In this document: piece after piece, positions 37,094 through 59,242 of the stretch
Numbering within the stretch: position 1 is the stretch's first letter
Layout: each line of letters opens with the position of its first letter
Virus record (IMG/VR): IMGVR_UViG_3300045253_000164
Coordinates: 26,314 to 90,313 of that record
From: a virus
Taxonomy: Duplodnaviria > Heunggongvirae > Uroviricota > Caudoviricetes
Direction: 5' to 3' (one strand)
Length of the DNA stretch: 64,000 nt
Translations under genes and position numbers: made by a program
Notes under the pieces: generated by a model
Told to the model about the DNA's origin: nothing
The model's input: only the letters and a program-made list of their open reading frames with translations
Databases searched by the model: none

Positions 37094-37096
37094 CCG

Positions 37097-38376: not shown

Positions 38377-38377
38377 T

Positions 38378-38692
38378 CTACTTCGTCAGCTCAGCCAATC
38401 GCTCGCGCAGACCTGGGAGTCGTGCGGCCTGCTTCTCGACAAATTCAATCTGCGCGGTCACTACACACATTTCGCACCAGGCCACTGGACGACACCCATG
38501 AGCAAACTCCAACGCTGACAACTGTTCGCCGCTCCACCACTTTGTGCCTGGTCGCGTCTTGCAATTCCCGCAAAGTGCCTGTCCGTCAGGTTTTCTGAAG
38601 TAGGCCTCCTGGGGAATGTACGACCCCACATCAACCACGTAACCCGCCTGCGCGCCGCTGGCCGTTATCTGCCCCACCGAGTAATCGCTCAC
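38378..38692 (-). CDS. small Cys-containing hypothetical protein
   Basis: ~104 aa from GTG 38692 (GTGA overlap with the upstream stop); CGNC...CEMC. The 5' part of the tracked ORF overlaps the next gene and is rejected. Confidence 0.25.
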   Translation of the reverse strand: MSDYSVGQITASGAQAGYVVDVGSYIPQEAYFRKPDGQALCGNCKTRPGTKWWSGEQLSALEFAHGCRPVAWCEMCVVTAQIEFVEKQAARLPGLRERLAELTK

Positions 38693-39624: not shown

Positions 39625-39781
39625 GTCGTTGGATACCTGTGATACATTCGGCACATCATGTGGGCAGGTAATAACCCACTAACGCCGCCCCACATTGGCT
39701 GCCACGGCCACACAAACCAGCCGCACAAATAGCAAACATGGTTGTGGTAATAGTTCGCGCCGTCCGACCATCCCTGCGATC

Positions 39782-40705: not shown

Positions 40706-41646
40706 TCCAGCCTCCGCACCATCGTCAGCCCGAAACCCCACGGGAGCGTCAGCACCTCGAACTCCGGGCGCTGCCGCAGCTCGTTCACCACGATCGCCAC
40801 GCCAGTGTCGGCGTTCGTGGCCGCGCCGTTCTCAAAATAGTCGTGCAGCAGACAGAGTCCGTTGACGCGAACGCGGGGCAGGTAGCGCTCGACGTCAGCC
40901 CGCACCTGGGCCTCGCTGTGATCACCATCGATCCAGAGCAGATCGAGCGTCTCGGGCGGCTCAAAGTCGTTGGAGTTGATCACATGCAGCGCCCACCATT
41001 GGCTCAGCTTGGCCTGGTCGACGTAGCACGCGGCCTTCTCGGCAGCCTCTGCGTCGCACTCCAGCGAATGCAGGAGTCCACCTGTCTCGCGCATGGCGTA
41101 GAGCAACGGCATCGTCGAGATGCCTTCACGTACGCCGATCTCCAACACCACTGGCGGTCGTACAGGTCCCCGAGATTCGGGGTCGGGCCAGTTGACCCAC
41201 TTCGCAATGCTGTAGAGCACCAGCAAGTGCGGCCGTGAGTCGTAGAAGTCGCCGGCCTCCGTCCACCAGGCAGTGTCCCGGCTCAGCGCCACGAGCTCGG
41301 CGTCGCCGAACGGGCCGCGCCAGGGAGCGTTGACGCCGCCCCCCGATGGTCGCGGACTCCCGGGGCGTATGGCGCGTTGGAGGTCCACGCGTTCCGCCGC
41401 CAGCGAGAAATCCAGACGTCGTGGCGCGGTCAACGGCGGCGGTAGAATCGTTGCCCGCGTCGGTTGCAGCGTCGGCTGCGCCAAGCTCACCGGCGCCGAG
41501 CGTGGCGCAGGTGTCTGGGCAACGCTAGTCGCGAAGCGCAGGAAGAAGCTGAGGCCTGTGCGGGCGATCAGCTCTACCTGGTCCGGTGCGAAGCGATCGG
41601 CGAAGGTCGATCGCATCGCGGATTCGAATTGCTCGGCGGCGCTCAT
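40702..41646 (-). CDS. class I SAM-dependent methyltransferase (TylF/MycF-like, probable O-methyltransferase)
   Basis: LEIGVREGISTMPLL (motif I), LLWIDGDHSEAQV...LLHDYF. Confidence 0.6.
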   Translation of the reverse strand: MSAAEQFESAMRSTFADRFAPDQVELIARTGLSFFLRFATSVAQTPAPRSAPVSLAQPTLQPTRATILPPPLTAPRRLDFSLAAERVDLQRAIRPGSPRPSGGGVNAPWRGPFGDAELVALSRDTAWWTEAGDFYDSRPHLLVLYSIAKWVNWPDPESRGPVRPPVVLEIGVREGISTMPLLYAMRETGGLLHSLECDAEAAEKAACYVDQAKLSQWWALHVINSNDFEPPETLDLLWIDGDHSEAQVRADVERYLPRVRVNGLCLLHDYFENGAATNADTGVAIVVNELRQRPEFEVLTLPWGFGLTMVRRLE

Positions 41647-41873
41647 CGCGGATGTCCAGCGTCACAGGCCCACGACGTGGAGCTGCCGACCTCGAAGGCG
41701 TCGTGGGGCCACCACGAGGCACGAATTGGTACGACGGTGATCGATGTACCGTGCGTCAACTCCCTCGCGAGGAAATAGCGCGCGCGGGACACAACGCAGA
41801 AGTCTGCTCCTGGATGCGCAGCCAGCGCGGCACAGAGCCGTTCGCGGAACACTTCGTCGGTCATCTGGTCCAT
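41643..41873 (-). CDS. hypothetical protein
   Basis: 76 aa, translationally coupled between the two MTase paralogues. Confidence 0.35.
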   Translation of the reverse strand: MDQMTDEVFRERLCAALAAHPGADFCVVSRARYFLARELTHGTSITVVPIRASWWPHDAFEVGSSTSWACDAGHPR

Positions 41874-41876
41874 GGG

Positions 41877-42674
41877 CTACAGCTCCACAATCCGGTCGTC
41901 CGGCTCGAAGGCCGGCGACAACACCCGCACCAACGTCAGGCCGAATGAAAACGGTAGTGTCAAGATCTCATAGCACCCCGTCTGCCGCAGCTGTTCCACG
42001 GCGGCGCTGACGTAGCTCGGGAACGGCGGCTGAATCGGCGGATCGCACGGCCAGGGCTTGGAGTAGTAGTCGTGCAGCGCAATGAGCCCTCCGGGCCGCA
42101 CCTGCGGCACGAAGCGCTCGACGTCCTTGCGCACCTGGTCGAGGCCGTGATCGCCGTCGATCAGCAGGAAGTCCAGCGGCCGCCCCAGCGTTGCGCAGTC
42201 GAAGTCGTCGGAGCGCTGGATGCGCAGGTCCCACCACGGCGTCAGCTGGGCCCGCTCGATGACGTCAGCCGCGGCACGCGCCCAGTCCGGATCACACTCC
42301 AGTGACACCAAGCGCCCATTGGCTTCGCGCATCGCGTGCAGCAGGTTCAACGTGCTGACGCCATGACGCACACCAATCTCCAAGCAGAGCGGTGGTCGTA
42401 GCGGCCGCGGCGCGCGGGGGTCGGGCCAATTGATGTTCCTGGCCAGCGCGTAAAGGATCGGCCCATGCGCACGCACATCGAACCAGTCGTCGACGCTCTT
42501 GCCATCAGGGCCGGTGTTGATGAACGCGCGGGTGTCGCGGCTCAGCGCCAGTAGCATAGCGTCATCCCAGGTGGCGCTGGTGACACTGGCGGACGCAGGG
42601 GGGACCGCTGCGGGCACCGCCACCGATGATGGCGGTGTCCCGCAGCGGAGACGATAGAGGGCGTCGAGGTCCAC
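41877..42674 (-). CDS. class I SAM-dependent methyltransferase (paralogue of 40702..41646)
   Basis: CLEIGVRHGVSTLNLL, FLLIDGDHGLDQV...ALHDYY. Confidence 0.6.
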   Translation of the reverse strand: MDLDALYRLRCGTPPSSVAVPAAVPPASASVTSATWDDAMLLALSRDTRAFINTGPDGKSVDDWFDVRAHGPILYALARNINWPDPRAPRPLRPPLCLEIGVRHGVSTLNLLHAMREANGRLVSLECDPDWARAAADVIERAQLTPWWDLRIQRSDDFDCATLGRPLDFLLIDGDHGLDQVRKDVERFVPQVRPGGLIALHDYYSKPWPCDPPIQPPFPSYVSAAVEQLRQTGCYEILTLPFSFGLTLVRVLSPAFEPDDRIVEL

Positions 42675-42681
42675 GGCTTAT

Positions 42682-43032
42682 TCAGACCGTCCAGATTTCC
42701 ACGTCCACCTGCGTCGCCGCGGTGATGGGTAGCGTGATGATGGACGGGCGCGACGGCGTCGGTCCCTGCTGAGGCACCGGCATTTTGTTCTGTGGGGTCC
42801 ATGTCTTGCCGTCGGGTGTCTTGACGATCACGTTCATTTCGCTCGCGCTGCTGGCCTTGATGACCTGATACTGCGCGACCGCGGACAGCGGGTTCAGCAC
42901 GGCGAGTGTCGTCGTGTCCATCGCTACCCACGAGAACGTCGTGCCCGAAGGGAGATCACGGCGGCTGCCGTCCGACATGACCGCGACCGCGCGGACGCTG
43001 ACGACCTGACCGAGTTGCAAAAGGGTGCTCAT
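42682..43032 (-). CDS. bacterial Ig-like (Big_2-like) domain protein
   Basis: 116 aa; LQLGQVVSVRAVAVMSDGSRRDLPSGTTFSWVAMDTTTLAVLNPLSAVAQYQVIKASSASEMNVIVKTPDGKTW fits the Big_2 pattern. Confidence 0.45.
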   Translation of the reverse strand: MSTLLQLGQVVSVRAVAVMSDGSRRDLPSGTTFSWVAMDTTTLAVLNPLSAVAQYQVIKASSASEMNVIVKTPDGKTWTPQNKMPVPQQGPTPSRPSIITLPITAATQVDVEIWTV

Positions 43033-43035
43033 GAC

Positions 43036-43428
43036 TTACTCCTTCTCCCGCAGCAAGCGGGGCTGTAGTTGCGTGATTCGAGACGCGTGCCATTGACCGC
43101 GGCGCTGACGTTCCGCCATGAAGGCGTCGGCAACGTCGAACGCGGCGATCACGATCAGCTCGCTGGCGCGCTCGGCTCCGACCGCCTGTTTCGCAGCGGT
43201 CGCAAGCTCCGGATCAGTAGCCATGCGTGCCAGCAGCACCATGGCGCACTCGTCGCGGAGCGCAGTGTCGGGGTCGTGGCCGTTGAGAACGGTTCCGGTG
43301 GTAGGGCCTATGCGTTCCATCCTGTCCTTCCTACTCGCGCACCTGCAGGTCGGTCCGATGGCCGTGTGCGTGGTAACAGTCGGAATCGAGCCATCACTCG
43401 CGCCTGCTCGGATCACTTCGGTGTCCAT
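43036..43428 (-). CDS. hypothetical protein
   Basis: Tracked ORF 43036..43542; plausible starts at ATG 43428 or 43320; C-terminal helical region. Confidence 0.3.
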   Translation of the reverse strand: MDTEVIRAGASDGSIPTVTTHTAIGPTCRCASRKDRMERIGPTTGTVLNGHDPDTALRDECAMVLLARMATDPELATAAKQAVGAERASELIVIAAFDVADAFMAERQRRGQWHASRITQLQPRLLREKE

Positions 43429-44338
43429 ACGGATGCCCGTATCGCTTGACCACCACGACGTCCGGGACGCTGTGAAAGGGACCGAGGCCGGCGAGCTCCA
43501 GGCGATAGAACCAGCCAGCGTCAGGACAGTCGAAGCGCTCACCAGGCAACCACGATTCCGAAAACGGCGCGTCGTCTATTTCTTCAAGTTGCCGGATGCG
43601 TCCATGCTCTTCATACCGAAAGATTTCCCGCGTTCGCGTTTCTGGCCATTGCGGAATACTCATCGGCAATCCGGCCAAGCCGCCATAGATGAACCCGTCG
43701 GGACCTGTATGCTCAAGCATGTTCGGTACACGCCGCACCATCGGCATCCCGTGGTCACAGCGGTTGGCGATGCGCGCCACGGGTTCGGCGGAGTAGAAGC
43801 TGTTGCGGTCATGCTTGCACTTGCCAGCGCCCTGAAGGAACGACGGCAAGCTGGGTCGTACCCCAAATTCGCCACAGTCAATCCCCTCAGGCAACGAATG
43901 CAGTCCCATTGCTGGCATGGGCGACTTACAGCTTTCCAGCCGCCCGTAAACCACATTCACCTCGGGATGCTCGATCAAGTACCGCACCCGGACTTCGATG
44001 CTGCCCAGCGTAAGAAAATCATCGTCAGGTAAATAGACCACGAAGTCCCCGTGCACGCACGCCATCGCCGTGTTGATGCAGATGGCGCAGCGCTGACCGT
44101 GCTGGCGCTCCTCCGGCGTCGGCGGCGGTCCAGGCTGGACGCACAACAGGCTGCGACCCTCGGTGAAGCACGAGCCGTACTCGGCGAGCACGTCGTGCAC
44201 AGCGTGATCGCTCCAATCGTCGGCGACAATGACCTCGATGTTCGGCCAGGTCTGCGCGAGGATGCTGTCCAGCGCATCACGGATCAACGTTGGCCGATTG
44301 TACGAGCTGAGTACGACACTGACGAGCGGCTCGTTCAT
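43394..44338 (-). CDS. family-2 (GT-A) glycosyltransferase
   Basis: VSVVLSSYNRPTLIRDALDSILAQTWPNIEVIVADDWSD plus VVYLPDDDFL (DxD). Confidence 0.7.
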   Translation of the reverse strand: MNEPLVSVVLSSYNRPTLIRDALDSILAQTWPNIEVIVADDWSDHAVHDVLAEYGSCFTEGRSLLCVQPGPPPTPEERQHGQRCAICINTAMACVHGDFVVYLPDDDFLTLGSIEVRVRYLIEHPEVNVVYGRLESCKSPMPAMGLHSLPEGIDCGEFGVRPSLPSFLQGAGKCKHDRNSFYSAEPVARIANRCDHGMPMVRRVPNMLEHTGPDGFIYGGLAGLPMSIPQWPETRTREIFRYEEHGRIRQLEEIDDAPFSESWLPGERFDCPDAGWFYRLELAGLGPFHSVPDVVVVKRYGHPYGHRSDPSRRE

Positions 44339-44664
44339 GGCTTCTGCCCGTTCGGCACTTCCCGCACCCAGCCGAGCCCTTGCTGCGCCTGCGTGCGGTA
44401 GAAATCCGCGCGGCCCATGGCGCGAGCGAATTGCTCATCGCTCAGCGGGTAGGGCTGCATCCACTCGCGGCCCTCGGCATCGGCCACCGCTGCCTCGGCC
44501 ACCGCCATGCACCACTGCACCAACTCGCCGGGCTTGGTCGTCAGCGCTGCGGTGTTCGTCGCGGCGGCGCGCAGCAAGTCGAGCACGATACGAAAGCGCA
44601 GGTCGAGCTGGAGGCCCTCGTCGCGGTCGTTGCTGAGGGGACTGCGGAAGTACGGCGTGCTCAT
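44335..44664 (-). CDS. hypothetical protein
   Basis: ~110 aa from internal ATG 44664 (MSTPYF...), ATGA overlap; the upstream part of the tracked ORF is rejected. Confidence 0.35.
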   Translation of the reverse strand: MSTPYFRSPLSNDRDEGLQLDLRFRIVLDLLRAAATNTAALTTKPGELVQWCMAVAEAAVADAEGREWMQPYPLSDEQFARAMGRADFYRTQAQQGLGWVREVPNGQKP

Positions 44665-45644
44665 GCGGCCTCCGGGAGTGTACTGTGAATGGCGCACCAG
44701 ACTGTCTCGGCACGGTGGCGCGTGGTGTGGTGACGGAGCCACCAGGCTTGCGCAACCTCCGCCAAGGCATGGGCGGCTATTGAGTCTGCCAGGAGCTGTT
44801 GCACAATGCGGAGAGCCTTGTCTGCGGTGCGAAACAGCGGAGTGACAATGCCCGACAGGCCCTGAATCCCGCAGGGAGCACCCGCGCGTGGTTGGTGACC
44901 ATCCTCCAACACCGGGCAGCACCCATCCGCGATGATCTCGAGGTGCCGGTTGGTGTGGTAACCAAGCCCCGCCGGCGACACGGCAATCAACGCAGACCGA
45001 TTCGCGGCGTGATTCTCCGCAACGTCCCACCGGGAACCGTCGGGCGGCATGACCACGCCCAGCTCGCGCAACCCTTCGCGCAACTGAGCTCGCGTCGAGT
45101 CCGGCGTGCACCAGTCCCACAGATGGGCTGAGTACACGACAGACGGCTCACGCTCGCCCACGGGCACCTGCCGTGAGGCCGGATAGCCGAAGGGCAGGGA
45201 CGTCGCCCAGTTCGCGCCCACCGGCAGTTCGCGCTTGAAGTACGCCACCGGCGCGGCGCCGAGGCACTCCGTGAACAGCGGCTGCGTGTTGTGCGGGTGG
45301 TCTTCAGCATCGTACGCGACGAGGCGATCGCGGGAGGCGTTCAGCAGCCCGGCACGCGCCCAGCTCCGCAGTTGCGACCGTACCTCGCCACGCACCGTCG
45401 GTACGATCACGGCAGCGAACGTCCCGTCGCGCAGGGCTTGCGCCACACGCTCGGCGCTCCAGTCGTGCTGGGGTCGATGCAGATCGCAGTCGAACGTCGC
45501 CGGAGCACCCTCGGACAGATGCAGCGACGGCTTCGGCGGCCAGTCGATCACGTGACCATCACCGAGCAGCTCGCAGAAGCCGTCGTACAGATAGTCCGGG
45601 CCGTAGTCCGGCGACGGATCGGTAAGAAACAGAATATCAGGCAT
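44661..45644 (-). CDS. GT-B-like putative glycosyltransferase paralogue (family of 3)
   Basis: Start at MPDILFLTDPSPDYG (ATG 45644). It shares the N-terminal and C-terminal (AQAWWLRHHTTRHRAE) signatures with 31715..32722 and 37366..38376. First gene of the island operon. Confidence 0.35.
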   Translation of the reverse strand: MPDILFLTDPSPDYGPDYLYDGFCELLGDGHVIDWPPKPSLHLSEGAPATFDCDLHRPQHDWSAERVAQALRDGTFAAVIVPTVRGEVRSQLRSWARAGLLNASRDRLVAYDAEDHPHNTQPLFTECLGAAPVAYFKRELPVGANWATSLPFGYPASRQVPVGEREPSVVYSAHLWDWCTPDSTRAQLREGLRELGVVMPPDGSRWDVAENHAANRSALIAVSPAGLGYHTNRHLEIIADGCCPVLEDGHQPRAGAPCGIQGLSGIVTPLFRTADKALRIVQQLLADSIAAHALAEVAQAWWLRHHTTRHRAETVWCAIHSTLPEAA

Positions 45645-45882
45645 GGGCGCGCGCCGGGGACCGGCGACCGTGGGTGGGGCCATGTCAAAAGCGCGGGTAA
45701 CGAGAGATGGTTCATGTGTCAAGCGGTTTCCGTGCGATGATCGTAAAGATGGCGCCGTGCAGCGCTGGGAGGACCGGATGCACTTCCCAGATCGACCAAC
45801 CGGCGGACTCCAGGGCGTTCAACTGCTGCTCCAGATAGAGCTGGTCGACGTTGGCTTGGATCTTCCAGGTATACGGCATCGT

Positions 45883-46206
45883 TCACTCCCGCGAGCGCAC
45901 AAAGACGCGGTGCTGGCCCCAGGTCGACGCGGAATCGGTGACCTCGCGAAGTTCGCCAAGTTCAACCATTCGGTCCAACGCGGCCAGCGCGAGCCAGGAG
46001 TCACCGATCATGACGTGGCTCGATTGGAATGCCCCAGCCTTCCCCAACAGGTCCTGGACCTTGTCGCGAATAGCCAGGAAGCTGCGCTGTCCGTCTTCGG
46101 TGAACAGTCGGTCCCGCTGGCCGGCATAGCTGTATCCCGGCCGCTCTGCTTCATGGGCGCGCATGGCGGCAAGCCTCCCTTCTTCTCTGGCAATGGCTTT
46201 GCACAA
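45883..46206 (-). CDS. hypothetical protein upstream of the island
   Basis: 107 aa; its 5' end abuts the GCACAA(A/G)AGC motif cluster. Confidence 0.35.
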   Translation of the reverse strand: MCKAIAREEGRLAAMRAHEAERPGYSYAGQRDRLFTEDGQRSFLAIRDKVQDLLGKAGAFQSSHVMIGDSWLALAALDRMVELGELREVTDSASTWGQHRVFVRSRE

Positions 46207-46259
46207 GAGCTAGCACAATCGCGCCTGCTTTTGTGCAGAAATGGGCGCCGCACAAAAGC
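46197..46259. promoter_or_regulatory. operator-like motif cluster: TTGCACAAGAGC, plus perfect inverted repeat GCTTTTGTGC-N13-GCACAAAAGC
   Basis: Seen directly in sequence; GCTTTTGTGC at 46227-46236 and GCACAAAAGC at 46250-46259. The same GCTTTTGTGCAGA 13-mer recurs at 47968. Confidence 0.45.
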
Positions 46260-46320
46260 TCGGCGTGATCCCCAGCTCGTACATCATATACTAGAAGTAT
46301 AGCCAAGGCAAGGGAAATCT

Positions 46321-46380
46321 ACCGAAAGTTGCGAGTTTTCTTCGTACCGCAGAAACCGCGAGTTGACTTCATACCGTAAC
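46321..46380. repeat. two imperfect ~30-bp direct repeats in the AT-richer divergent intergenic region
   Basis: ACCGaaAGTTGcgagttTTCttcgTACCG versus ACCGcgAGTTGacTTCaTACCG. Confidence 0.4.
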
Positions 46381-46381
46381 T

Positions 46382-46579
46382 GTGAGACAAGGGCGCATGC
46401 CACGGAAAGAGCGCACCGTTACAATCTGGGTGTGCAACCGCTGCGATCACGAGTGGCAGTCGCGCACCGATGAGGAACCGACGGTCTGCGCAAACTGCAA
46501 GAGTCCGTATTGGGACAAGCCGCGCCGCAACGCGGTCCCGAAGAAGACGCACCGAGGTGGAAAGCATGCCGCAGGTTGA
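46382..46579 (+). CDS. zinc-ribbon protein
   Basis: 65 aa, GTG start; CNRCDHEW...CANCKSPYW (two CxxC). It overlaps the start of the downstream MTase. Confidence 0.45.
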   Translation: MRQGRMPRKERTVTIWVCNRCDHEWQSRTDEEPTVCANCKSPYWDKPRRNAVPKKTHRGGKHAAG

Positions 46580-47534
46580 ACTCGCTGATCATGAATTAGG
46601 GCCAGCGGCGGCGCGGATGGACGACGGAGTTGCCTGGAAGGTGCAGAAGGGCGACGCCTACGATCTCCTACAGAAAGTTGCGCCCGCATCCGTCGACTTG
46701 ATTTTAACAAGGCCGCCCTATTGGGGGCATCGCTCATACGGGCAGGATCACAACTGGAACACGCTCCGCGAATGGCTGGCGACTAACAAGGATGCGGTCA
46801 CCATCCCATCCTACGAGTGGTATCGCGCACAAGGCGGCGTGCTTGGGCTGGAACCGCTGCCCGAGTGGTACGTGGCCCACATGGTCGAAATTTTCGAGCA
46901 CGCCCGCACCTGCATGAAGCCCACGGGAAGCATGTGGGTCAACATGGGCGATACGTACTTCGCGCGCTGGGCCAGCATCCGCGAAGGTGGTCGGCAAGGA
47001 CTCGGCGGGAATCCGCGCGCGCGGCGGCGCACGCCAATGGGCGGATACCGCCAGGAAAAACAACTCCTCATGGTGCCGGCGCGCTTCGCAATAGCGATGC
47101 AGGACAGCCGCTGGATACTCCGCAACGACCTGATTTGGTACAAGCCCAATGTTCCACCCCGACCCGAGTCGGATCGCCTACGCTTGGCTCACGAACACTT
47201 CTTTCACTTCGTGAAGCGACCGAAGATCGGGCGGGCCAAATATTACTATGCCATCGACCAAGTTGAACCTGGCACCACTGACGTGGTGACCTGTTACGCC
47301 AGCGCCGGTGGAAACGGCCACAGCGCCACATTTCCAGAGAAGCTGATCCGACCGCGCATCCTGAGTTCCTGCCCGGCAGGTGGCCTCACGATTGATCCCT
47401 TCTGCGGGACGGGCCGCGCGCTAACGGTCGCTGTCGAATCAGGCCGCCGCGCCATTGGCTTCGATTCTTCGGCAATGTATGTACGGGCAACACGTGCTGC
47501 ATTGCAGAAGCTGAATGCCGAAGCGCACAAATAA
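46566..47534 (+). CDS. amino-(N6A/N4C) DNA methyltransferase, beta-class
   Basis: Start at ATG 46566 (MPQVELADHELG). Motif IV DLILTRPPYW comes first; motif I IDPFCGTGRALTVAVESGRRAIGFDSS is near the C-terminus. Confidence 0.7.
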   Translation: MPQVELADHELGPAAARMDDGVAWKVQKGDAYDLLQKVAPASVDLILTRPPYWGHRSYGQDHNWNTLREWLATNKDAVTIPSYEWYRAQGGVLGLEPLPEWYVAHMVEIFEHARTCMKPTGSMWVNMGDTYFARWASIREGGRQGLGGNPRARRRTPMGGYRQEKQLLMVPARFAIAMQDSRWILRNDLIWYKPNVPPRPESDRLRLAHEHFFHFVKRPKIGRAKYYYAIDQVEPGTTDVVTCYASAGGNGHSATFPEKLIRPRILSSCPAGGLTIDPFCGTGRALTVAVESGRRAIGFDSSAMYVRATRAALQKLNAEAHK

Positions 47535-47693
47535 GCCGCGCACTCCTCGCAAGCGTCCCACCGCCGCGAAGAAGCCGCCGCGCGACAAGGGCCAACGAGC
47601 AACTACGATACGCACACCGGTGGAACACCCACCGACGGCGAGCTGTGCAACCAGTGCAAGGGGAAAGAGAAAGACGGGAAGTGCGACTAGCGC

Positions 47694-47954
47694 CTATGCG
47701 TCGATAGCGCGCGCGACTGTCAGCCGCAGAACCGCCTTGTCCCCCGCGAACCACAATTCCCGGATATGCCGGGCGTAAGCGACGTTCCGCTGTCGCGCGA
47801 ACTCATCGAAGCAGAACAGGCAGACGACGCGGTTGAGGAGTCTGGGCGGCACCACCGCCGCCCAGACCTCATCTGGCACGCTGAAATCAAACTTATCCGG
47901 AAACCCGCACATCTTGCAGGTCTGGCGCTGGCGATTGTCCCCAGGTCGCTTCAC
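47694..47954 (-). CDS. hypothetical Cys4 protein
   Basis: 86 aa; CKMCG...CLFC. Confidence 0.35.
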   Translation of the reverse strand: MKRPGDNRQRQTCKMCGFPDKFDFSVPDEVWAAVVPPRLLNRVVCLFCFDEFARQRNVAYARHIRELWFAGDKAVLRLTVARAIDA

Positions 47955-47967
47955 TCAAGCACCTTGA

Positions 47968-48015
47968 GCTTTTGTGCAGACGGCCGAGCTATTGTGCGGG
48001 AGCCAGCTATTGTGC
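47968..48015. promoter_or_regulatory. operator-like motif cluster: GCTTTTGTGCAGA, GCTATTGTGC x2
   Basis: Three spaced copies of the GCT(T/A)TTGTGC motif just upstream of the start of gene 47694..47954. Confidence 0.45.
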
Positions 48016-48261
48016 AAAGCCTCTGGCAATCAGCCTCTTCGTGCTTTCGATTAGGCGATCTGGAATGAAGGCATCACAAATCATCGCGCAGCTCCTTTCG
48101 CGCAACTTTGCATCCACGCCAGAAACGCCCGCCAGCACGCGACGCACAGGTGCATCTTGGTCACGTTCCACGCCTCATTCGTCGGCGGTGAAAAAGCTAA
48201 GCCGCCTGGAGCATCCAATTCCTGAGAGCACCGCGCGCACGTGACCTTGATCATCGCTCCC

Positions 48262-48720
48262 TCACCACGAGTTGATCAGCGCCCGGTGGCTGCGCTGACA
48301 CGTGACACCCGTACCCACCACCAGCGTGCACTTCTGCGCCCGCAGCAGCACGGCGTACGAAGCCACAGGCCGATAGCTCAACGTGGCCACCACGGATACC
48401 AACGGCGCGCCGTTGAGACACAGCACAATCAGCGTGAACCGCAGCCGCGCGCCGGCACGATGTGTGGACGAGGCCACCGCGCACTCGGTGTCGACGTTGG
48501 TGTCCAACAGCTGCAGATCGGCAAATCGATCCGCGGGGTAATCCACCATCAGCTCGTAGGCCAATGCATCACCGGGAAGCACCGGCAAGCCATCGGGCAC
48601 GTCGATGTCCACCGCCGCATCCCCGACGGGCACGATCAGCGCCGGCACGCCCTCGTGGAGCTCGGCGTGTGCGGTCAAGGCCGTGACTAACAGTGTGACA
48701 ACGACAATCGTGCGCATCAT
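48262..48720 (-). CDS. secreted protein (signal peptide)
   Basis: 153 aa from ATG 48720: MMRTIVVVTLLVTALTAHA has a hydrophobic core and an AHA cleavage site. The 5' part of the tracked ORF is rejected. Confidence 0.45.
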   Translation of the reverse strand: MMRTIVVVTLLVTALTAHAELHEGVPALIVPVGDAAVDIDVPDGLPVLPGDALAYELMVDYPADRFADLQLLDTNVDTECAVASSTHRAGARLRFTLIVLCLNGAPLVSVVATLSYRPVASYAVLLRAQKCTLVVGTGVTCQRSHRALINSW

Positions 48721-48986
48721 GCCGCCTTCGTCCGCGATGTCCGCTTCGCGTGCCGTTGCGTTGCGGGGTTCCACAATCGGCCCACGCGGCAGGCGTAACA
48801 ACCAGGACCGCACGGGCAGCGCTCTGTCTCGATGCCCGACGTCGTCACCCGGCGCGCCGCCACTGGCAGTGGTTGGCCGGGATGCCAATCCTTCGTACGC
48901 CGGAGTTGATCGATGGTCCGTGCATCGGCTTCCCGGACCGTACCGAACGCGTGCGTGCCTGGTGACCACGTCGTCGCCATAGTCAT
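48717..48986 (-). CDS. small Cys-rich protein
   Basis: ~89 aa from ATG 48986; CPCGPGCYAC; ATGA overlaps at both ends. Confidence 0.35.
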   Translation of the reverse strand: MTMATTWSPGTHAFGTVREADARTIDQLRRTKDWHPGQPLPVAARRVTTSGIETERCPCGPGCYACRVGRLWNPATQRHAKRTSRTKAA

Positions 48987-49990
48987 CGCCCCATCCCCTC
49001 CTGCACCCAACTCGGCGGCAGCTGTTTCGTGATCTCAATCTGCGCAAAGCGCGTCGGCTCCTGGGGGCCGCGCTGGCGCGCCCAATGCGCCATTTCGGCG
49101 AGACCCAGAGCGAGCGGCGTTGACGGTCGGTCGCCGAACACACGGCGGAGCTTGTCGTGCGTACAGTAGGCGTCCCGCACCTCGACGCGCGCCGGCAGAT
49201 GGACGAACGGCGCCTGGGGCATGCCCATTGCCGCCGCTGTCAGATAGGCAATCTCGTTGATCGTGTATGCGGTGTCGGCGCCGACGTTGAAGACCTCCCC
49301 GCAGACGTCGGGTCGGGTCACCGCTTCCGCGATCAGCGGCGCGACGTCCGCGATGTAGCTGAACGCCCGCGTTTGGTTGCCGTCGCCGAAGATGGTCAGC
49401 GGCTCCCCGCGCAAGAGCTGGTTCATGAAGATACCGATGACGTTCCGGTAGCGGTCGCCGATGTGCTGATGTCCCCCGAATACGTTATGAGGACGGAAGA
49501 TCACCGTCTCCAAGCCGAACAGCCGTGCGGCCGTCGCCAGGTGTTGCTCGACCGCGTACTTCGCGATGCCGTAGGGGTCCTCGGGCTGTGGCTGCGTCTC
49601 CTCGGTCATCGGCACCGGCGCCGCGCCATACACCGCCATGCTTGAGGTGAACACGAAGCGCTGGACCCCATGGTTCACTGCAGCTGCAATCAGGTTGCAC
49701 GAGCCCACCAGGTTGTTCTCGTAGTTGAACCGGGGAATGAAGTGGCTGAGCCCCTCCGCGGCATACGCAGCCAGGTGACACACCGCGTCGAAGCGATGGT
49801 CGGTGAACACGCGATGCACGAAGAACGGGTCCGTGATGCTGCCCTGCCAGAAGCTCGCCGCGGGCGGCACGTTGTCCAGAAAGCCGCCGCTCAGATCGTC
49901 GACCGCGCACACCTGATGGCCGGCCTTCAGCAGCTCGGCGGCGACGTGAGACCCGATGAAGCCTGCGGCCCCGGTGACCAGGACGTTCAT
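48983..49990 (-). CDS. NAD-dependent NDP-sugar epimerase/dehydratase (extended SDR)
   Basis: MNVLVTGAAGFIGSHVA (Rossmann GxxGxxG), YGIAKY (YxxxK). Confidence 0.7.
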   Translation of the reverse strand: MNVLVTGAAGFIGSHVAAELLKAGHQVCAVDDLSGGFLDNVPPAASFWQGSITDPFFVHRVFTDHRFDAVCHLAAYAAEGLSHFIPRFNYENNLVGSCNLIAAAVNHGVQRFVFTSSMAVYGAAPVPMTEETQPQPEDPYGIAKYAVEQHLATAARLFGLETVIFRPHNVFGGHQHIGDRYRNVIGIFMNQLLRGEPLTIFGDGNQTRAFSYIADVAPLIAEAVTRPDVCGEVFNVGADTAYTINEIAYLTAAAMGMPQAPFVHLPARVEVRDAYCTHDKLRRVFGDRPSTPLALGLAEMAHWARQRGPQEPTRFAQIEITKQLPPSWVQEGMGR

Positions 49991-51206: not shown

Positions 51207-52013
51207 CTACTCAATGCCCTTGATCAGCGGAATACCGTTAGATCCGCTCGGGATGTAAACCGTCGTGTGGTTCTGGGACCGGGACATCTCGAACTGCGCC
51301 TTGATCGCTTCATGCTGGAGATACAGCGGCGTCAGCGTCGTATTGATAATCTTCTGTGACTCAGCGATGCCCTTCGCCTCTTCGATGCGTACCTGCGCAT
51401 CCTGCTTCGCAATGTCGATCTCGAACCGCTTCTGTTCGAGCTGCGTCTCTTTGGTGATCTTCTGTTCCTGGGCTTGCGCGACGAGGCCCGGTAAATTGAT
51501 CACGCCAATTACAACCGACTGAATCTCGAAAGGCATGTTGGCGACGTAGGCCGCCAGTTTCTCGTGAACGACCTTCGACATCTCCTCGCGTCGGGCCTTT
51601 GCTTCTAGCGCGTTCAAGCCAGACACAGCTTCGTACACTGCATTGCGGAACGGCTGTTGAATCACGCGGTCGTACCACCAGCCCCCGCCGTAGAGTTCCA
51701 CAAGCAGTTTGACGCTTCCTGACTTCGGGCGCATGACCACGTGCGCGTGAAACTTCAACGACAGATTGTCTGCGGACATGACATCGAACTCTTCGTTGAT
51801 GGTTCGCCACTGCATGTCGATGTTGTCGACCTCAAGCATCCACCCGATTCCCGTTGACATTGGTCCGGTCTGGGTGCCGTAAAACCGCGCCTGTCCAAAT
51901 AGCGCCCCCTTTTTCACGTACCCTTCCCATCCCGCGCCGGTTTCTGGATTGCTGCACCCAGCGCAGCCAGACAATCCTAACGCCATTACAACCATCGCCA
52001 GCAGCCGCTTCAT
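51207..52013 (-). CDS. SPFH/band-7 (prohibitin/HflK-like) lipoprotein
   Basis: Start at MKRLLAMVVMALGLSGCAGC (lipobox LSGC); an SPFH-like core is followed by a coiled-coil C-terminus (QEQKITKETQLEQKRFEIDIAKQDAQVRIEEAKGIAESQK). Confidence 0.55.
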   Translation of the reverse strand: MKRLLAMVVMALGLSGCAGCSNPETGAGWEGYVKKGALFGQARFYGTQTGPMSTGIGWMLEVDNIDMQWRTINEEFDVMSADNLSLKFHAHVVMRPKSGSVKLLVELYGGGWWYDRVIQQPFRNAVYEAVSGLNALEAKARREEMSKVVHEKLAAYVANMPFEIQSVVIGVINLPGLVAQAQEQKITKETQLEQKRFEIDIAKQDAQVRIEEAKGIAESQKIINTTLTPLYLQHEAIKAQFEMSRSQNHTTVYIPSGSNGIPLIKGIE

Positions 52014-52078
52014 GTTCTCCTCCCACTCAAAAACGTTCGGGCGACACCACCCACGCAACGGCATCGCCAGGTTCACCC

Positions 52079-52621
52079 TCATCCCTCCTTCCGCAACACC
52101 ATCGCGAGGCTCCACTGCGGGCACGCTTCGCTGAACTGCACCAGGCGCGCGTCGCACCACGCCAGCCACGGCCGCGTCGTCTCGGCATCCCACGGCGTTG
52201 GCGATAGACCAAGGACCTCGAGCGCGAGCTCCGGTGGCGACCACTCGTGCCGATGCGGCGTCGCATCGGTGTTCTGCCCCAGCGTGTAGATCGTGTTGGG
52301 AATGACGCAGACCACGCGGCCTCCCGGGCGCACAACCCGCAACCACTCCTGCAACGCGTGGCGCGGCTCGGCCAGGTGCTCGAGCAGGTGCACCGTCAAC
52401 ACGAAGTCGAACGTCGCGTCCACATAGGTCAACGCGCAGGCATTCCCGCACAGCTGGGAGGCGTGAGTCGGCTGCAGGTCGCAGCAGGTGATCTCCGGCC
52501 GCAGCGTGCGACCGCCGGCACCTGGATCGAGACCGTCCCCCTGGCACCAGCGCACCACCGAGGCAATCTCCTGCCGCCACATTGCGTCGGCACAGACCGG
52601 CTGGCCCTCGTAGTACTCCAT
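52079..52621 (-). CDS. class I SAM-dependent methyltransferase (Methyltransf_11-like)
   Basis: Start at MEYYEGQ (ATG 52621; alternative 52651). LDPGAGGRT motif I-like; DFVLTVHLLEHLAEP...VRPGGRVVCVIPN. Confidence 0.55.
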   Translation of the reverse strand: MEYYEGQPVCADAMWRQEIASVVRWCQGDGLDPGAGGRTLRPEITCCDLQPTHASQLCGNACALTYVDATFDFVLTVHLLEHLAEPRHALQEWLRVVRPGGRVVCVIPNTIYTLGQNTDATPHRHEWSPPELALEVLGLSPTPWDAETTRPWLAWCDARLVQFSEACPQWSLAMVLRKEG

Positions 52622-52659
52622 GGGTGTTCGTGCTGACGCGGCTGACTGCATGGGGCGCG

Positions 52660-52947
52660 TCACGGATGCCGCTTCTCCGGGGCGCCATCGGCCGCCGCCC
52701 GCTGTCGCTCCAATCCCTGTGAAGTGGTCAATGGCGGTCGCTTCGGAGGCATCAAACGAGCCCTCCGGCCCGCGCCGCCGATACGAAACGCTCGACGGCC
52801 CCAGCACGATGCGGCCGCCATGAGCTTGGCAGTTTCCGGCGAGCGCCAGGCTTCACCGAGCGTGACTTCGAAGCCCAGGGCGAGCGCCTGGTTGATCAGC
52901 TTGGGCAGCAGGGTGGCAAAGAGGCGTTGCTGTTCGGAGAGGGTCAT
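52660..52947 (-). CDS. hypothetical protein with weak M15/VanY-like peptidase N-terminal resemblance
   Basis: 95 aa; LFATLLPKLINQALALGFEVTLGEAWRSPE loosely resembles the G-x-R-S-x-x-Q region of L-Ala-D-Glu peptidases, with no downstream catalytic motifs; possibly a remnant. Confidence 0.25.
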   Translation of the reverse strand: MTLSEQQRLFATLLPKLINQALALGFEVTLGEAWRSPETAKLMAAASCWGRRAFRIGGAGRRARLMPPKRPPLTTSQGLERQRAAADGAPEKRHP

Positions 52948-55045: not shown

Positions 55046-55654
55046 CTACGCCGCCTTCCTGACTGCCACGTCGCGCCACTCCAGGAACGGCCAGCGATGC
55101 CGCGCCAGCCGTGACAAGGTCCGGTACTGCTTGGGGATCTCCGGGCGTACCCGGACATGCAATGTCCGCGATACACCGACCCGAAACGCGACCCGTCGGC
55201 CATCAGGCGTCACCAGGATGTGGATGCAGTGCGGTCTCACCCGGGCGGCCTTGTAGTAGCCTGAGGCGTGGGGATGAATCCGCCACTGGTAGTGGACGAA
55301 ATGCACGCGGATCGGGGTCGTGCCGAGCAGTGCCACGACCCGCTGATGGTCGACGACAACCAGCTTCACCCCAGGTCTGCGGCGCATCAGCTCAGCGACG
55401 ATGCGCCCGGTGGGGCTCTGGCGGTACGCAGTGAGGGCTTGTGCGGTTCGGGCGTGATGCGCAGTAGCTAGCTGACGGCGCCGGCGTTGCTTACGATCGG
55501 TACAGCCGGCCTTCTGTAGCACGAGATGCACGGCTTGGCGGGTGAGGGGAATCCCGGTGCGCGCGGCAATCTCCTGGGCAATGGCGGCCAGGCTCGGCGT
55601 TGTCGGCTGGGCGGCCAGCTCGACGATGAGGGCGTTGCGGGTAGCACGGGTCAT
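55046..55654 (-). CDS. HTH DNA-binding protein
   Basis: 202 aa; N-terminal IAQEIAARTGIPLTRQAVHLVLQKAG helix-turn-helix. Confidence 0.4.
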   Translation of the reverse strand: MTRATRNALIVELAAQPTTPSLAAIAQEIAARTGIPLTRQAVHLVLQKAGCTDRKQRRRRQLATAHHARTAQALTAYRQSPTGRIVAELMRRRPGVKLVVVDHQRVVALLGTTPIRVHFVHYQWRIHPHASGYYKAARVRPHCIHILVTPDGRRVAFRVGVSRTLHVRVRPEIPKQYRTLSRLARHRWPFLEWRDVAVRKAA

Positions 55655-56331
55655 GGACGGACCTCGTTCCCCGCAAAGCTCAACACTTCCTGCGCGCAGC
55701 GCTTGGCGGCGATTTCGCAGTAGCGTTCCTCGATCTCGACGCCGATGGCCTTGCGGCCAAGCGTCTTAGCCGCCTCGAGGGTTGTGCCACTGCCTACAAA
55801 TGCGTCCAGCACTGTTTCACCTTCAAGGGTAGCAAGGGCAACCAACCACAGCATGAAAGCGATAGGCTTCGGGCACGGGTGGCCATTGTATTCTCCGGTG
55901 ACGTGCAGCCCCGGATGGTACATCACCCGCACAGTCGGCTCCTTTGTGGTGCGCGGTGGCAGTCCATAAAAGAGCACGGGATGCAGACAGTTGAATCCCC
56001 ATGCCCCAATGCCGCCGCCGTTTGGGCAAACTATTCCACCTATGTCTCTAGGGCCCGGATACGAATGCAGATTGCGAGAGCCGCAAAATATCGCCCCTCG
56101 CTTCACTCGTAACAGTGCTTCTCTAACTCGGGGAAGCACCTCGAGGCTGAAGGATTCTGCGGTGTCGTGATAGCCGTCCACCTGGTGCTTCGCGTGCTTG
56201 GTGTGAATGCCGGAGAACTCTACGCCATAGGGCGGGTCAGTCACCAATGCATCCGCCTCGAGGGCAGGCAGCACGTCGCGGCAGTCCCCATGGTACAGCG
56301 TCACCGCCGCGTCTTGGTAGTACGGCGTCAT
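55651..56331 (-). CDS. amino-(probably N6A) DNA methyltransferase, beta-class
   Basis: Start at MTPYYQD (ATG 56331). Motif IV LVTDPPYGVEF comes first; motif I LDAFVGSGTTLEAAKTLGRKAIGVEIE is at the C-terminus. Confidence 0.7.
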   Translation of the reverse strand: MTPYYQDAAVTLYHGDCRDVLPALEADALVTDPPYGVEFSGIHTKHAKHQVDGYHDTAESFSLEVLPRVREALLRVKRGAIFCGSRNLHSYPGPRDIGGIVCPNGGGIGAWGFNCLHPVLFYGLPPRTTKEPTVRVMYHPGLHVTGEYNGHPCPKPIAFMLWLVALATLEGETVLDAFVGSGTTLEAAKTLGRKAIGVEIEERYCEIAAKRCAQEVLSFAGNEVRP

Positions 56332-56413
56332 GGACGCCGCCCCCCCCCACGGGTGAACCAGGTGCCTGCAACGAGCAGGCAGAGGGTGAGGAAGACGAGG
56401 CCGGGTGGGTGGA

Positions 56414-56953
56414 TCATGCGGAGGCCTCCGCGGCAGCCGCACCAGGCCGGCGCCATCCAACAATCCCATTGAACGGCAATGGACGCTCGCCGGCCCGGTG
56501 CGAACGCCAGAACTGCTTCTTGCGCCGACTCAAGTGGCACGACACGCACAGCACCAACCGGTTCTCGTCGCGCCAGTCGCAGGCGTCGTTGTTTCGGTGC
56601 GTGTTGCACAGTCGCTCGGTACTGCCGCAGGCTTCACAATGCGTGCGCGGCGCGTGGCGCCACGGGCGTTGATGCGCGCCACCCTTCCAATTCCAGTGAC
56701 GCGGGCCGCCACGGGCAATCCGCTTGCGATGCTGGCGCGAGAGTCGCTTGCCGGTCCAGGGTGCGCAGAGCCGTCCCGCCGCCCGTGCTACGGCGCTCGC
56801 CTCAACGAGTGATCGCCGCGGTTCTCCGTGCCGGCGCAGCAAGGTGAGCACGCTGGCCGCGTGGCAGTGGTACCGCTCGGCAATCTGCCCACTGGACAGA
56901 CCATCACGATAGAGCGCCACGACGTCGGCGACTGGCAGGAGTTGGCGGCTCAT
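56414..56953 (-). CDS. HTH + HNH endonuclease
   Basis: N-terminal LSSGQIAERYHCHAASVLTLL (HTH); C-terminal CEACGS...LCNTHRNNDACDWRDENRLVLCVSCH (HNH with Zn Cys). Confidence 0.6.
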   Translation of the reverse strand: MSRQLLPVADVVALYRDGLSSGQIAERYHCHAASVLTLLRRHGEPRRSLVEASAVARAAGRLCAPWTGKRLSRQHRKRIARGGPRHWNWKGGAHQRPWRHAPRTHCEACGSTERLCNTHRNNDACDWRDENRLVLCVSCHLSRRKKQFWRSHRAGERPLPFNGIVGWRRPGAAAAEASA

Positions 56954-57291
56954 GTGTGATCCTCAGCGAATAGCGTCGCCGGATGGCCACAAGCGTTCGG
57001 TGACACCCACAGCACCTCAGTCCGTTTGCGAGCACCGTCGGCTAGGGCCTGTCGCTCCACGCGATGCCAGTCGGCATACAGCTCGCGGTCATAGAGATCG
57101 CATGCATAGCCAGACAAAATGACCATGCCCGTCACCGAACGGAGGACCTGCGCGAGCGCGCGATGATCCTCATTTCCCATCTCATGGCGATAGCCCTTGT
57201 TGGCCCTGAGCGTGTGCGGGCTGCGCGTAATCCGCATATAGGGCGGATCCACGTAGTGAAGCGTGAGCGGCGAATCATGTTGCAGAATCAC
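56950..57291 (-). pseudogene. C-terminal fragment of a Dam-family (D12-class) N6-adenine MTase
   Basis: LHYVDPPYMRI...GMVILSGYACDLYDRELYADWHRVERQALADGARKRTEVLWVSP parallels the Dam region from DPPY to the C-terminus. Motif IV lies at residue ~14. The ~170-aa SAM-binding N-terminal half is absent; the upstream frames encode unrelated small ORFs. Confidence 0.55.
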
Positions 57292-57718: not shown

Positions 57719-59242
57719 CTACTTCACCGTCTTGAGCTGCACCTGGAGATCGCCGCTAGTCGCTCTAGTCGTGCTGGCAATCCCCAGCGTACCATCAGCG
57801 GCTCGATCGACCGAGACGCTGGCCGTGTCCAGGATCGATGCGACGTCTGTGAAGGTCGGTAGGACGCCGGGTATGTCGCTGACGGTCGCTTGCCGGAGCA
57901 CAGTGCCGCCGCTGGCGCCGGCCACCGGATAGAACGCGAGCCATGCACTTGGCTTGCGGAGAATCCTCGTCGTGAACCGCAGGCCCGGGCCCAATGAGTC
58001 GGCATCCACCGGCGGCTCGAGTAGAATGGTCTTGACGGCCGCTATGCCACCGGCAGACGGCCGTTGAAATAGCGTCAGCCGCGACTGCGTCAGGCGACCG
58101 CCAGCCGTGCCCTGTCTGTCGAGCCGCTCCGTCCAGAGCGCGGCGAAGTGCCCGGCCCCATCGCCCGCGAGTTGATTGTTCGTCTGCTCGAGAAAGGATC
58201 CGGGAATGATCCGACTCTGCGAGCTCGCAATGTTGGCGCGCTGATTCAGGGAATAGAGCAGGACGCCGCCCCACATGCTCCCGGCGTCGCAAACAACCGT
58301 GGCCAGCCAGCCGCCGGCGGGATTCCAGGCGAACGCCGGATTGACAGAATGCGATCCCATGACCTTGAGTGTGATCTGGATTCCGGGAGTGAACTTCGTC
58401 GCGCCCGTCAGTGAGCACTTGAAGAAGTAGGTGCATTGGTGCATCGGATTCGCTTGCCAATCCGACTCTGCGCCAATCAGCCAGCCATTGCCGTTGGTCT
58501 GCGGAAAGTCGACGTCGTTGGTGACCGGCATCATGTCGCCGATGCCGCCATGGACGCCCAGGAAGTCGAGTAGCGTGGCGAACGTCGACGAGAGGGTACC
58601 GGTGACCGGATCCAGCGTATAGAGCAGCTGATGCGTCGTGCGTGTGAGCGAGCCATCAGGACGCGGGGCCCCGAGCGGGCCGATCATCTCGTTGACGACG
58701 ATGCCAATCACCTTCGCCCCCGGGTGCCAGGCGGCCAGGTAGACCGGCTCCCGATCGTACCGATGGATATCGAGGAGCTTTCGGGCGGTGACCTTCGGCG
58801 TGCCATCGAAGCCATTGAGCGCATACCAGAGTTCCGAGACGGCATGCTGATCTTGAAGTCCAGCATCGACGCGATTCTGAATCCAGAGCATCGCCCAGCC
58901 GACGTCGGTGGCGAAGAGCCGGACGCGGCGAATCGCCTGGACGGCGTCGCTGTGCACAAGCCCCGCCATGTCGGGCTGCGGAGGCACGGCCGCAGGTAAC
59001 TCCTGCAGGAAGGCGCCGGCCGGAAAGGTCGTGATTTGACCAGCGACCGCTTGCGCGATGAGGTGCGCGTCGTTCATCGTCACCTTCCCGTCGTTGTCGA
59101 CATCGGCGCAGCGCTTCTGATCGGCCGTCAGCACCGAGGGCTTGCCAGCGGCGATCGCCTGCAGTTCTTGCTCGACGAGGACGACGTCCTGCATCGAGAG
59201 GGCTGCATTTCCGGAAACGTCACCGAGTAGTAGCTTCGCCAT
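57719..59242 (-). CDS. dockerin-repeat-containing protein
   Basis: 507 aa; N-terminal GDVSGNAALSMQDVVLVEQ and ADVDNDGKVTMNDAHLIAQAV form two dockerin-type Ca-binding repeats. The rest is a Gly/Trp-rich beta-type region. Confidence 0.5.
   Translation of the reverse strand: MAKLLLGDVSGNAALSMQDVVLVEQELQAIAAGKPSVLTADQKRCADVDNDGKVTMNDAHLIAQAVAGQITTFPAGAFLQELPAAVPPQPDMAGLVHSDAVQAIRRVRLFATDVGWAMLWIQNRVDAGLQDQHAVSELWYALNGFDGTPKVTARKLLDIHRYDREPVYLAAWHPGAKVIGIVVNEMIGPLGAPRPDGSLTRTTHQLLYTLDPVTGTLSSTFATLLDFLGVHGGIGDMMPVTNDVDFPQTNGNGWLIGAESDWQANPMHQCTYFFKCSLTGATKFTPGIQITLKVMGSHSVNPAFAWNPAGGWLATVVCDAGSMWGGVLLYSLNQRANIASSQSRIIPGSFLEQTNNQLAGDGAGHFAALWTERLDRQGTAGGRLTQSRLTLFQRPSAGGIAAVKTILLEPPVDADSLGPGLRFTTRILRKPSAWLAFYPVAGASGGTVLRQATVSDIPGVLPTFTDVASILDTASVSVDRAADGTLGIASTTRATSGDLQVQLKTVK

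Follow-up and report, generated by a model that had tools for sequence, protein, structure and literature searches.

A phage-encoded N-terminal dockerin fused to a beta-propeller of a new sequence family

The dockerin-propeller gene and its genomic setting

The window, that is, the whole stretch of 64,000 nucleotides of viral DNA analysed here, belongs to a tailed phage and encodes a large terminase (37..1908), a tape measure protein (15620..20299) and a major-head-like protein (24875..26122). Its GC content is about 64%, and nearly all of its coding sequence lies on the minus strand. An open reading frame of 507 codons plus a stop at 57719..59242 on this strand, taken from the open reading frame list and the sequence, encodes a dockerin followed by a beta-propeller. 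This reading frame had been described in an earlier note made from the letters alone; it is real, and the peptides quoted from it there are exact. The ATG at position 59242 is the first start codon downstream of an in-frame stop, and an N-terminal extension of the protein is therefore impossible.

The gene is located about 30 kb from the structural module, among a run of small ORFans. The upstream open reading frame stops 3 nt before its ATG, and the ATG of the next one lies immediately past its own stop codon. Scans for promoters and terminators around the gene returned nothing above shuffled expectation. Genes downstream in transcription order encode an HNH endonuclease, DNA methylases, a VRR-NUC protein, an SPFH protein and a glycan-biosynthesis cluster. 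When ten neighbouring open reading frames were compared with PHROGs, the HNH endonuclease alone was matched.

The N-terminal part of the protein is a type I dockerin (residues 6-65; 59048..59227, minus strand), as had been proposed from its calcium-binding repeats. The assignment is supported by a Pfam match, by three helices in the structural model and by conservation of the module in two further phage-type copies, P0002 and L089. The Pfam family Dockerin_1 (PF00404) matched residues 6-65 with E=1.5e-6 and 28.7 bits, against a curated gathering cut-off of 22.9 bits, and the match covered profile positions 1-55 of 57. With matches listed to E<=10, Dockerin_1 was the sole Pfam family found in the 507-aa protein and no EF-hand family was reported, which answers the question of a dockerin versus a generic EF-hand in favor of the former. 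Searches of PHROGs and NCBIfam with the same protein gave no match. JGI protein P0001 has the identical sequence and already carried the tag PF00404, and the dockerin is therefore findable by routine annotation.

Both calcium loops of the module were located with a relaxed motif (D-x-[DNST]-x-[DN]-[GA]-x-[VILM]-x3-D) scanned over the 128,000 six-frame codons of the window. The motif occurred twice, both times inside the 507-aa reading frame and 39 residues apart, compared with a mean of 0.05 occurrences in 100 codon-shuffled windows, none of which contained a pair. Loop 1 (DVSGNAALSMQD; residues 8-19, 59186..59221, minus strand) departs from the canonical pattern by a Ser at position 3 and an Ala at position 6. 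In homologs it reads DVTGDGTLSTTD and DVSGDGTLSLSD, position 3 being Thr or Ser and position 6 Gly. Loop 2 (DVDNDGKVTMND; residues 47-58, 59069..59104, minus strand), which is also supported by the alignment of homologs, has the canonical D1, D3, D5, G6, V8 and D12. Helices were modeled by AlphaFold at residues 17-31, 40-46 (the connecting helix) and 56-66, with pLDDT of 75-89, and the tandem loop and helix segments of a type I dockerin are thereby present, loop 1 with the first helix and loop 2 with the last.

A generic EF-hand-like pair of calcium-binding sites, or a chance match in GC-rich sequence, would be in keeping with the non-canonical residues at positions 3 and 6 of loop 1 and with a Pfam score just 5.8 bits over the cut-off. 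We consider this reading highly improbable, given that Dockerin_1 was the only family matched and over nearly its whole profile, that the motif pair was absent from every shuffled window, and that the model contains a three-helix module. Homologs also pass the Dockerin_1 cut-off independently, among them P0002 (34.1 bits), P0005 and P0010-P0012; the dockerin of L089 is 64% identical to that of the window, and the equivalent module in bacterial relatives adjoins cohesins. None of the tests run (Pfam, homologs, model and shuffles) supported a non-dockerin origin of the pattern.

A linker (residues 66-92; 58967..59047, minus strand), defined from alignments and with pLDDT below 50 at residues 79-92, separates the dockerin from the remainder of the protein. 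It contains the motif I-T-T-F-P-A-G (the FPA motif), which is also found directly after the dockerin in bacterial relatives, and L089 carries a short Pro/Thr linker here.

Residues 93-506 (57725..58966, minus strand) make up the second domain, here called domain X. The earlier note had described this part as Trp/Gly-rich beta structure of unknown function. As a description of composition this is roughly right, as the domain is all-beta with 10.4% Gly and 2.5% Trp, and with regard to fold "unknown" is now superseded. In an AlphaFold model built from a 14-sequence input (pLDDT 76.3, pTM 0.72), the 27 beta-strands past residue 93 form seven blades of four strands each, the last of which is closed by the first strand; a two-sequence input gave pLDDT 39 and was discarded. 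Based on this model, the C-terminal domain is a seven-bladed beta-propeller, and it represents a new sequence family. Foldseek matched it to sialidases, PLL lectins, LGI1 EPTP domains and GH43 proteins, all at about 10% identity (9-10% for sialidase), and because identity is this low the matches identify the fold only. The same fold-level likeness, at about 10% identity, holds for the seven-bladed YncE (3vgz), CylK (7ron) and PLL/BP39L lectins (5c9o, 6gxr) and for the six-bladed sialidase NanA (2vvz). No Pfam domain was found in the propeller part, and a search of PDB sequences with the propeller profile returned nothing meaningful. Asp-box repeats (S-x-D-x-G-x-T-W) and the (F)RIP motif are absent from the phage propeller even when relaxed, and it contains no WD dipeptides. 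Having neither Asp-box nor RIP motif, it is not a member of the sialidases (GH33).

Conservation within the family is concentrated in a few positions. In the 14-sequence alignment G215 and G235 are invariant and E259, H268, H298 and D319 nearly so, with C270, W370/E372 and the motifs HGGIGDM and HRxDREP also conserved. Most of these residues lie in or just ahead of the inner strands of successive blades, the arrangement that a putative site would have if it lay on one face, around the central channel. It is firmly established that the dockerin encoded by the phage is genuine and that it is fused to a seven-bladed propeller belonging to a new family.

Phage and bacterial relatives of the dockerin-propeller protein

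The propeller family is extremely rare. A word-indexed search of 5.8 billion clusters returned the window protein and one 42%-identical protein, P0002, and nothing else. An exhaustive phmmer search with residues 75-507 against 1.84 billion representatives found eight proteins, with E-values from 1e-71 to 8e-15 for seven relatives, and a profile search added six more. Dockerins had been said to be rare in phage proteins, and the searches are consistent with this: there was no PHROG match, just one contig in IMG/VR carried a dockerin of this type, and tblastn against 50,697 GenBank phage records gave two matches only, both weak. Dockerin-like phage genes have received no more than passing mention, one example being gene 40 of vibriophage VvAW1 (PMC3558961).

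Three phage-type copies were identified: the window copy, P0002 and L089. P0002 is intact, is 42% identical to the window copy, and is encoded on IMG/VR UViG_3300044708_000067 (L001), where it is flanked on one side by a gene for a DnaG-type (primase-like) zinc ribbon and a 117-aa open reading frame and on the other by a ResIII helicase gene. The gene of L089 is split by a frameshift in the assembly into parts of 191 and 320 aa, which may be an assembly error. All three copies begin with M-x-(K)-L-L-(L)-G-D-V right at the dockerin, and at 42-64% identity they have kept both calcium loops, the motif I-T-[TK]-F-P-A-G and the family-invariant residues of the propeller. No signal-peptide-like hydrophobic core was present in the phage copies (N-terminal hydrophobic core score at most 1.6, versus 2.0-3.2 in the bacterial proteins). 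The phage version is a minimal form, consisting of dockerin and propeller with no export signal. At E<1e-4 to 1e-5 no other gene was shared among the three contexts (window, L001 and L089) in the stretches compared; the upstream 117-aa open reading frames of the window and L001 are equal in length and have no detectable homology.

Seven full-length bacterial relatives (P0004, P0005 and P0010-P0014) are 600-850 aa long and have the order signal peptide, CarboxypepD_reg-like domain, Dockerin_1, Cys module (CGSDW...GDCTGNW), long Pro/Thr linker and propeller. Their Dockerin_1 scores range from 12.6 to 31 bits and exceed the cut-off of 22.9 in four of the seven. P0013 is encoded by a chromosomal gene on a 380-kb contig with housekeeping neighbours. 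Across the phage and bacterial members of the 14-sequence alignment the dockerin, the FPA motif and the propeller line up, and the pairing of dockerin and propeller is inherited. Because the bacterial relatives are secreted and chromosomal and share this pairing, it is old and extracellular, with the phage protein a stripped-down form of it.

The propellers of phage and bacterial proteins are 23-31% identical, with single-sequence E-values down to 1e-27. Among full-length bacterial proteins the P0004/5/9 group is nearest, with 29-31% identity to the phage propeller, and the Binatia P0013 group has 23-26%. The closest non-phage relatives of any kind are P0007 and P0008 (41-45% identity across the aligned segment in phmmer, 34% in BLASTP), in which a signal peptide and a short Pro/Thr linker are present and the dockerin is missing. 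The P0007 copy is truncated and lies in a contig resembling a mobile element.

The gene could alternatively be a passenger taken up from a bacterium, decaying and with no role in the phage or a role in the lysogen only, and several of these observations would fit. Three copies with no other gene in common would suit a mobile accessory gene. The family is also extremely rare, and decay does occur in it, as shown by the frameshift in L089 and by the truncated remnant P0007. Against this, the window and L001 copies are both intact at their level of divergence with calcium loops, FPA motif and invariant residues kept, and the frameshift of L089 is itself possibly an assembly artifact. The genes are also packed translationally into operons and have no separate promoter and terminator. 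The signal peptide, the CarboxypepD_reg domain and the Cys module have been lost alike in all three copies, which also share an identical start residue, suggesting that this form is maintained in phages. A passenger origin is for these reasons quite unlikely.

Genomes were scanned with patterns from the P0010-14 alignment, using one genome per GTDB species; the patterns are biased to the dockerin cassette of these proteins and missed the P0004/5/9 group. The scan gave 130 confirmed loci, of which 80 were kept, with 6-8 or more cassettes per MAG. Records with a named taxon were mostly Candidatus Binatia, with a minority labelled as Deltaproteobacteria, Desulfurellales and Thermodesulfobacteriota (a few) and as Acidobacteriaceae and Margulisiibacteriota (one each). 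About 15 loci were full-length propeller orthologs and the remainder cassette-only, the cassette in these paralogs following Peptidase_M10 (matrixin) domains or NHL/teneurin-type propellers.

Of 57 extracted open reading frames, 33 continue past the cassette with a tail of about 130 aa. Searched one by one, 7 of 24 tails matched Pfam Cohesin (best E = 7e-7) and none matched another family; scores included 24.5 bits for the tail of L056 and 21.7 for that of L078, relative to a cut-off of 24.1, and an N-terminal cohesin in L031 scored 41. A profile of the 24 tails searched against the PDB placed 2xdh, annotated "COHESIN", first (E = 0.0024), followed by NagJ cohesin modules and cellulosomal scaffoldins. 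The tail is, on these profile matches, a cohesin. Since secreted proteins that bear the cassette often carry a cohesin too, a cohesin-dockerin system of non-cellulosomal type is present in Binatia genomes. The searched literature contained no paper that brings Binatia or Binatota together with dockerin, and two things appear to be undescribed there, the Binatia dockerin(-cohesin) cassette and the propeller family with its conserved His, Glu and Asp.

Like the phage protein, the Binatia cassette proteins (P0010-P0014 and L007-L085) and the P0004/5/6/9 group have a homologous propeller after the dockerin and FPA motif. The phage proteins differ from the Binatia cassette proteins in having no signal peptide, CarboxypepD_reg-like domain, Cys module or long Pro/Thr linker. 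The window protein is not a member of the Binatia-type cassette, of which it has the dockerin and the FPA motif alone.

The relation between the phage dockerin and the cassette can be gauged from a profile of 45 independent cassette dockerins, which gave 85 bits to P0005, 75 to P0004, 50 to P0002 and 20 to the window protein. The window dockerin thus scores lower against the cassette profile than against the generic Pfam family (28.7 bits). The first calcium loop, moreover, is full in the phage dockerins and shortened in the Binatia cassettes. A direct or recent copy of a Binatia cassette was considered and rejected, because of the low cassette score of the window dockerin, 20 bits versus 75-115 for bacterial members, and its full first loop. 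The link between the phage and Binatia is not very tight. GC content is 0.640 in the window, 0.663 in L001 and 0.683 on average in the Binatia loci, and the phage is compatible with a Binatia-like host in this respect. Relatives of the phage terminase, at 44-50% identity, all lie on unbinned metagenome contigs and carry no host information. The cohesins are found in Binatia genomes that hold relatives of the protein, and the kinship of the minimal phage form with secreted dockerin-propeller proteins from such genomes is firm; Binatia is a possible host of the phage.

Candidate functions of the phage protein

The reading we prefer, at somewhat below an even chance, is that the dockerin docks the propeller onto a cohesin-bearing protein of the host surface, where the propeller then acts on a surface ligand. 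The protein would be made in the infected cell and would be active outside the cytoplasm, most simply upon lysis. Its dockerin would bind Ca2+ and place the propeller on a cohesin-bearing surface protein of the host population, and the docked propeller would bind or modify a surface ligand. Binding partner, host, timing and propeller activity are the parts of this scheme that we infer. A more specific version, in which the phage plugs its own propeller into a Binatia-like cohesin network, for example to mark, mask or remodel receptors after lysis, is possible but rather doubtful.

Docking onto a host scaffold or onto the virion had been suggested in the earlier note for this protein. The idea gains indirect support from the related bacterial proteins, which sit in genomes with a cohesin-dockerin system. 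It is weakened by three features of the phage: no cohesin was detected in the 64 kb of it that were searched, the protein has no signal peptide, and the gene lies in an early/DNA-metabolism region away from the structural genes. In both copies with informative neighbours, those of the window and L001, the gene is held in an operon of this early or DNA-metabolism type. Such a location is unexpected for an extracellular factor and for that reason counts against an extracellular role.

The main rival to host docking is a virion-attached accessory or receptor-binding protein, in which the dockerin would anchor to a cohesin-like beta-sandwich in the tail or head and the propeller would bind the receptor. 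Phage receptor-binding proteins are usually built in this way, with an anchor at the N-terminus and a binding domain at the C-terminus, and matches in BFVD included propellers with T7 tail-fibre or tailspike N-terminal domains as well as a cyanophage structural protein. The missing signal peptide fits assembly in the cytoplasm, and the phage has very large tail proteins of undefined domain content (one of 1966 aa, and one of 768 aa with a Laminin_G_3 domain). The gene is, however, remote from the structural module in the window and lies between primase-like and helicase genes in L001, and having the dockerin at the N-terminus is a trait inherited from the bacterial relatives rather than a phage-specific one. 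A Binatia cohesin profile run against six frames found no cohesin in L001 or in the window, the latter being 64 kb of a 90-kb parent contig with the other 26 kb outside the search (best E = 0.18), and no Pfam Cohesin was reported in about 30 larger open reading frames. In addition, a canonical dockerin requires Ca2+, and the cytoplasm is poor in Ca2+. We judge attachment to the virion to be unlikely, if somewhat less so than a passenger gene.

The protein might instead work inside the cell, as part of the replication or early module, with the propeller as a platform for proteins or nucleic acids and the "dockerin" as a helical interaction module independent of Ca2+. We regard an intracellular role as very unlikely, and it and the passenger gene are the less likely of the readings considered.

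A two-module protein that is signal-less and apparently extracellular, encoded in an early or replication-type operon in both copies with informative neighbours, is a puzzling combination.

Few known protein-protein interactions are as strong and as specific as those of cohesin-dockerin pairs, on which cellulosomes and many engineered assemblies are built. If host docking is true, a phage dockerin acting on host cohesins would be a new route of interaction between virus and cell surface, and orthogonal docking pairs could be drawn from it. In the version with a Binatia-like cohesin network, the protein would be the first component of a cohesin-dockerin system to be encoded by a virus, and it would open a first way into the phages of the uncultured phylum Binatota and into an undescribed Binatia cohesin-dockerin "surfaceome". 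Should the link to Binatia hold, it would provide a testable host assignment for a 90-kb phage with a large glycan-biosynthesis cluster.

Comparison with known docking and attachment systems

The phage module resembles the type I dockerins of cellulosomes (PF00404, as in Clostridium thermocellum) in its duplicated loop and helix, its length of about 60 residues and its three helices. It differs from them in its degenerate loop 1, and no scaffoldin is known for the phage. Compared with cellulosomal dockerin enzymes, the protein carries its dockerin at the N-terminus, has no signal peptide, and bears a propeller as cargo instead of a carbohydrate-active enzyme. It is not a cellulosomal enzyme, having neither a signal-peptide core nor a CAZyme-type Pfam domain, in addition to the N-terminal position of its dockerin.

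Cohesins and dockerins also occur outside cellulosomes, for example in Archaeoglobus fulgidus and in NagJ of Clostridium perfringens. Other non-cellulosomal cohesin-dockerin systems are already known (Peer et al. 2009, as cited in PMC9012536), including one in ANME archaea (PMC9012536). The likeness to these systems lies in modules that are attached to cargo unrelated to cellulose and in proteins that bear both a cohesin and a dockerin. Those systems are cellular, whereas in the present case a phage encodes one partner, with a presumed cohesin as the other.

Phage fibres and spikes provide a second comparison. Proteins of Pectobacterium phages MA13 and phiA41 found in BFVD likewise join a small N-terminal attachment module to a C-terminal propeller. 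The dockerin-propeller protein has no sequence relationship to the MA13 and phiA41 fibres, uses a dockerin as the adaptor, and is encoded outside the structural module. The dockerin itself belongs to a known family; what is new is its N-terminal, signal-less and phage-borne form with a new propeller as cargo.

Glycan-biosynthesis genes and an SPFH protein in the phage

The tailed phage carries a large glycan-biosynthesis cluster (33720..49990, minus strand), all of whose genes listed here are on the minus strand. It includes a gene resembling NAD-dependent epimerases and GDP-mannose dehydratases (48983..49990), two GT2 glycosyltransferase genes (43394..44338 and 39782..40741), two Glyco_trans_1_2 genes (38689..39654 and 37366..38376), two Methyltransf_24 genes (41877..42674 and 40702..41646) and a gene for a Nol-like carbamoyltransferase (35651..37093; phrog_1601, E=1.5e-75). 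The cluster could serve in modification of the host surface or in glycosylation of the virion. The phage also encodes an SPFH/Band 7 domain protein (51207..52688, minus strand), whose gene lies between a methyltransferase gene on one side and the epimerase gene on the other. Its longest ORF is 493 aa; the gene call on the Logan contig gives 289 aa.

DNA methylases, an HNH endonuclease and large tail ORFs

Three full-length N6_N4 DNA methylases are encoded by this one phage in the window, at 1909..3414 (minus strand), 46470..47534 (plus strand) and 55651..56469 (minus strand). The second, which is located within a dip in GC content (0.604), is one of very few plus-strand genes in the window. 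At 55651..57291 (minus strand), an HNH endonuclease ORF (56414..56953; phrog_8446/7545) is placed between a 113-aa ORF with a DPPY methylase motif (56950..57291) and a gene for an N6_N4 DNA methylase of 272 aa (55651..56469), all three on the same strand. This arrangement looks like a homing endonuclease that interrupts or flanks a methylase gene.

The terminase gene is downstream of the tail genes, with a methylase gene in between. A giant ORF of 1966 aa (5916..11816, minus strand) has a sub-threshold match to Gly_rich_2. Gene calls in 12896..15618 need care because a 768-aa ORF with a Laminin_G_3 domain (13312..15618, minus strand) is overlapped in a different frame by one of 444 aa (12896..14230, minus strand).

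Related viral contigs and propeller relatives

At the end of L001, a related viral contig, there is an ORF built of perfect (M/L)PPGLPPG repeats (13112..13588, minus strand). The called genes lie on the other strand, and this ORF is probably an artefact of translating a DNA repeat. The contig L089 holds a third phage-type dockerin-propeller gene (336..1870), which is split by a frameshift into two ORFs of 191 aa and 320 aa; the frameshift may stem from an error in assembly or mark a pseudogene. This copy has a short Pro/Thr linker, whereas the copy in the window has none.

One non-phage relative, P0007 (in the L087 region 8001..9052), is a truncated propeller protein of 220 aa with a signal peptide, a Pro/Thr linker and about 2.5 blades. 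It is directly followed by a RyR-domain gene on a contig of small ORFs and NikA-like genes, which is probably another mobile element.

A cohesin-dockerin cassette in Candidatus Binatia

Loci from GTDB genomes, mostly Candidatus Binatia (L007-L085), encode a non-cellulosomal cohesin-dockerin system. It is apparently undescribed so far, and no paper on it turned up in the literature library searched. In the conserved cassette, Dockerin_1 has a CarboxypepD_reg-like domain before it and a Cys module (CGSDW...GDCTGNW) after it, and in many cases a cohesin follows at the C-terminus. The cassette is present in 6-8 or more copies per MAG and is found on matrixin peptidases as well as on NHL propellers and on the new propeller. 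Proteins with dockerin and cohesin in one polypeptide could form chains.
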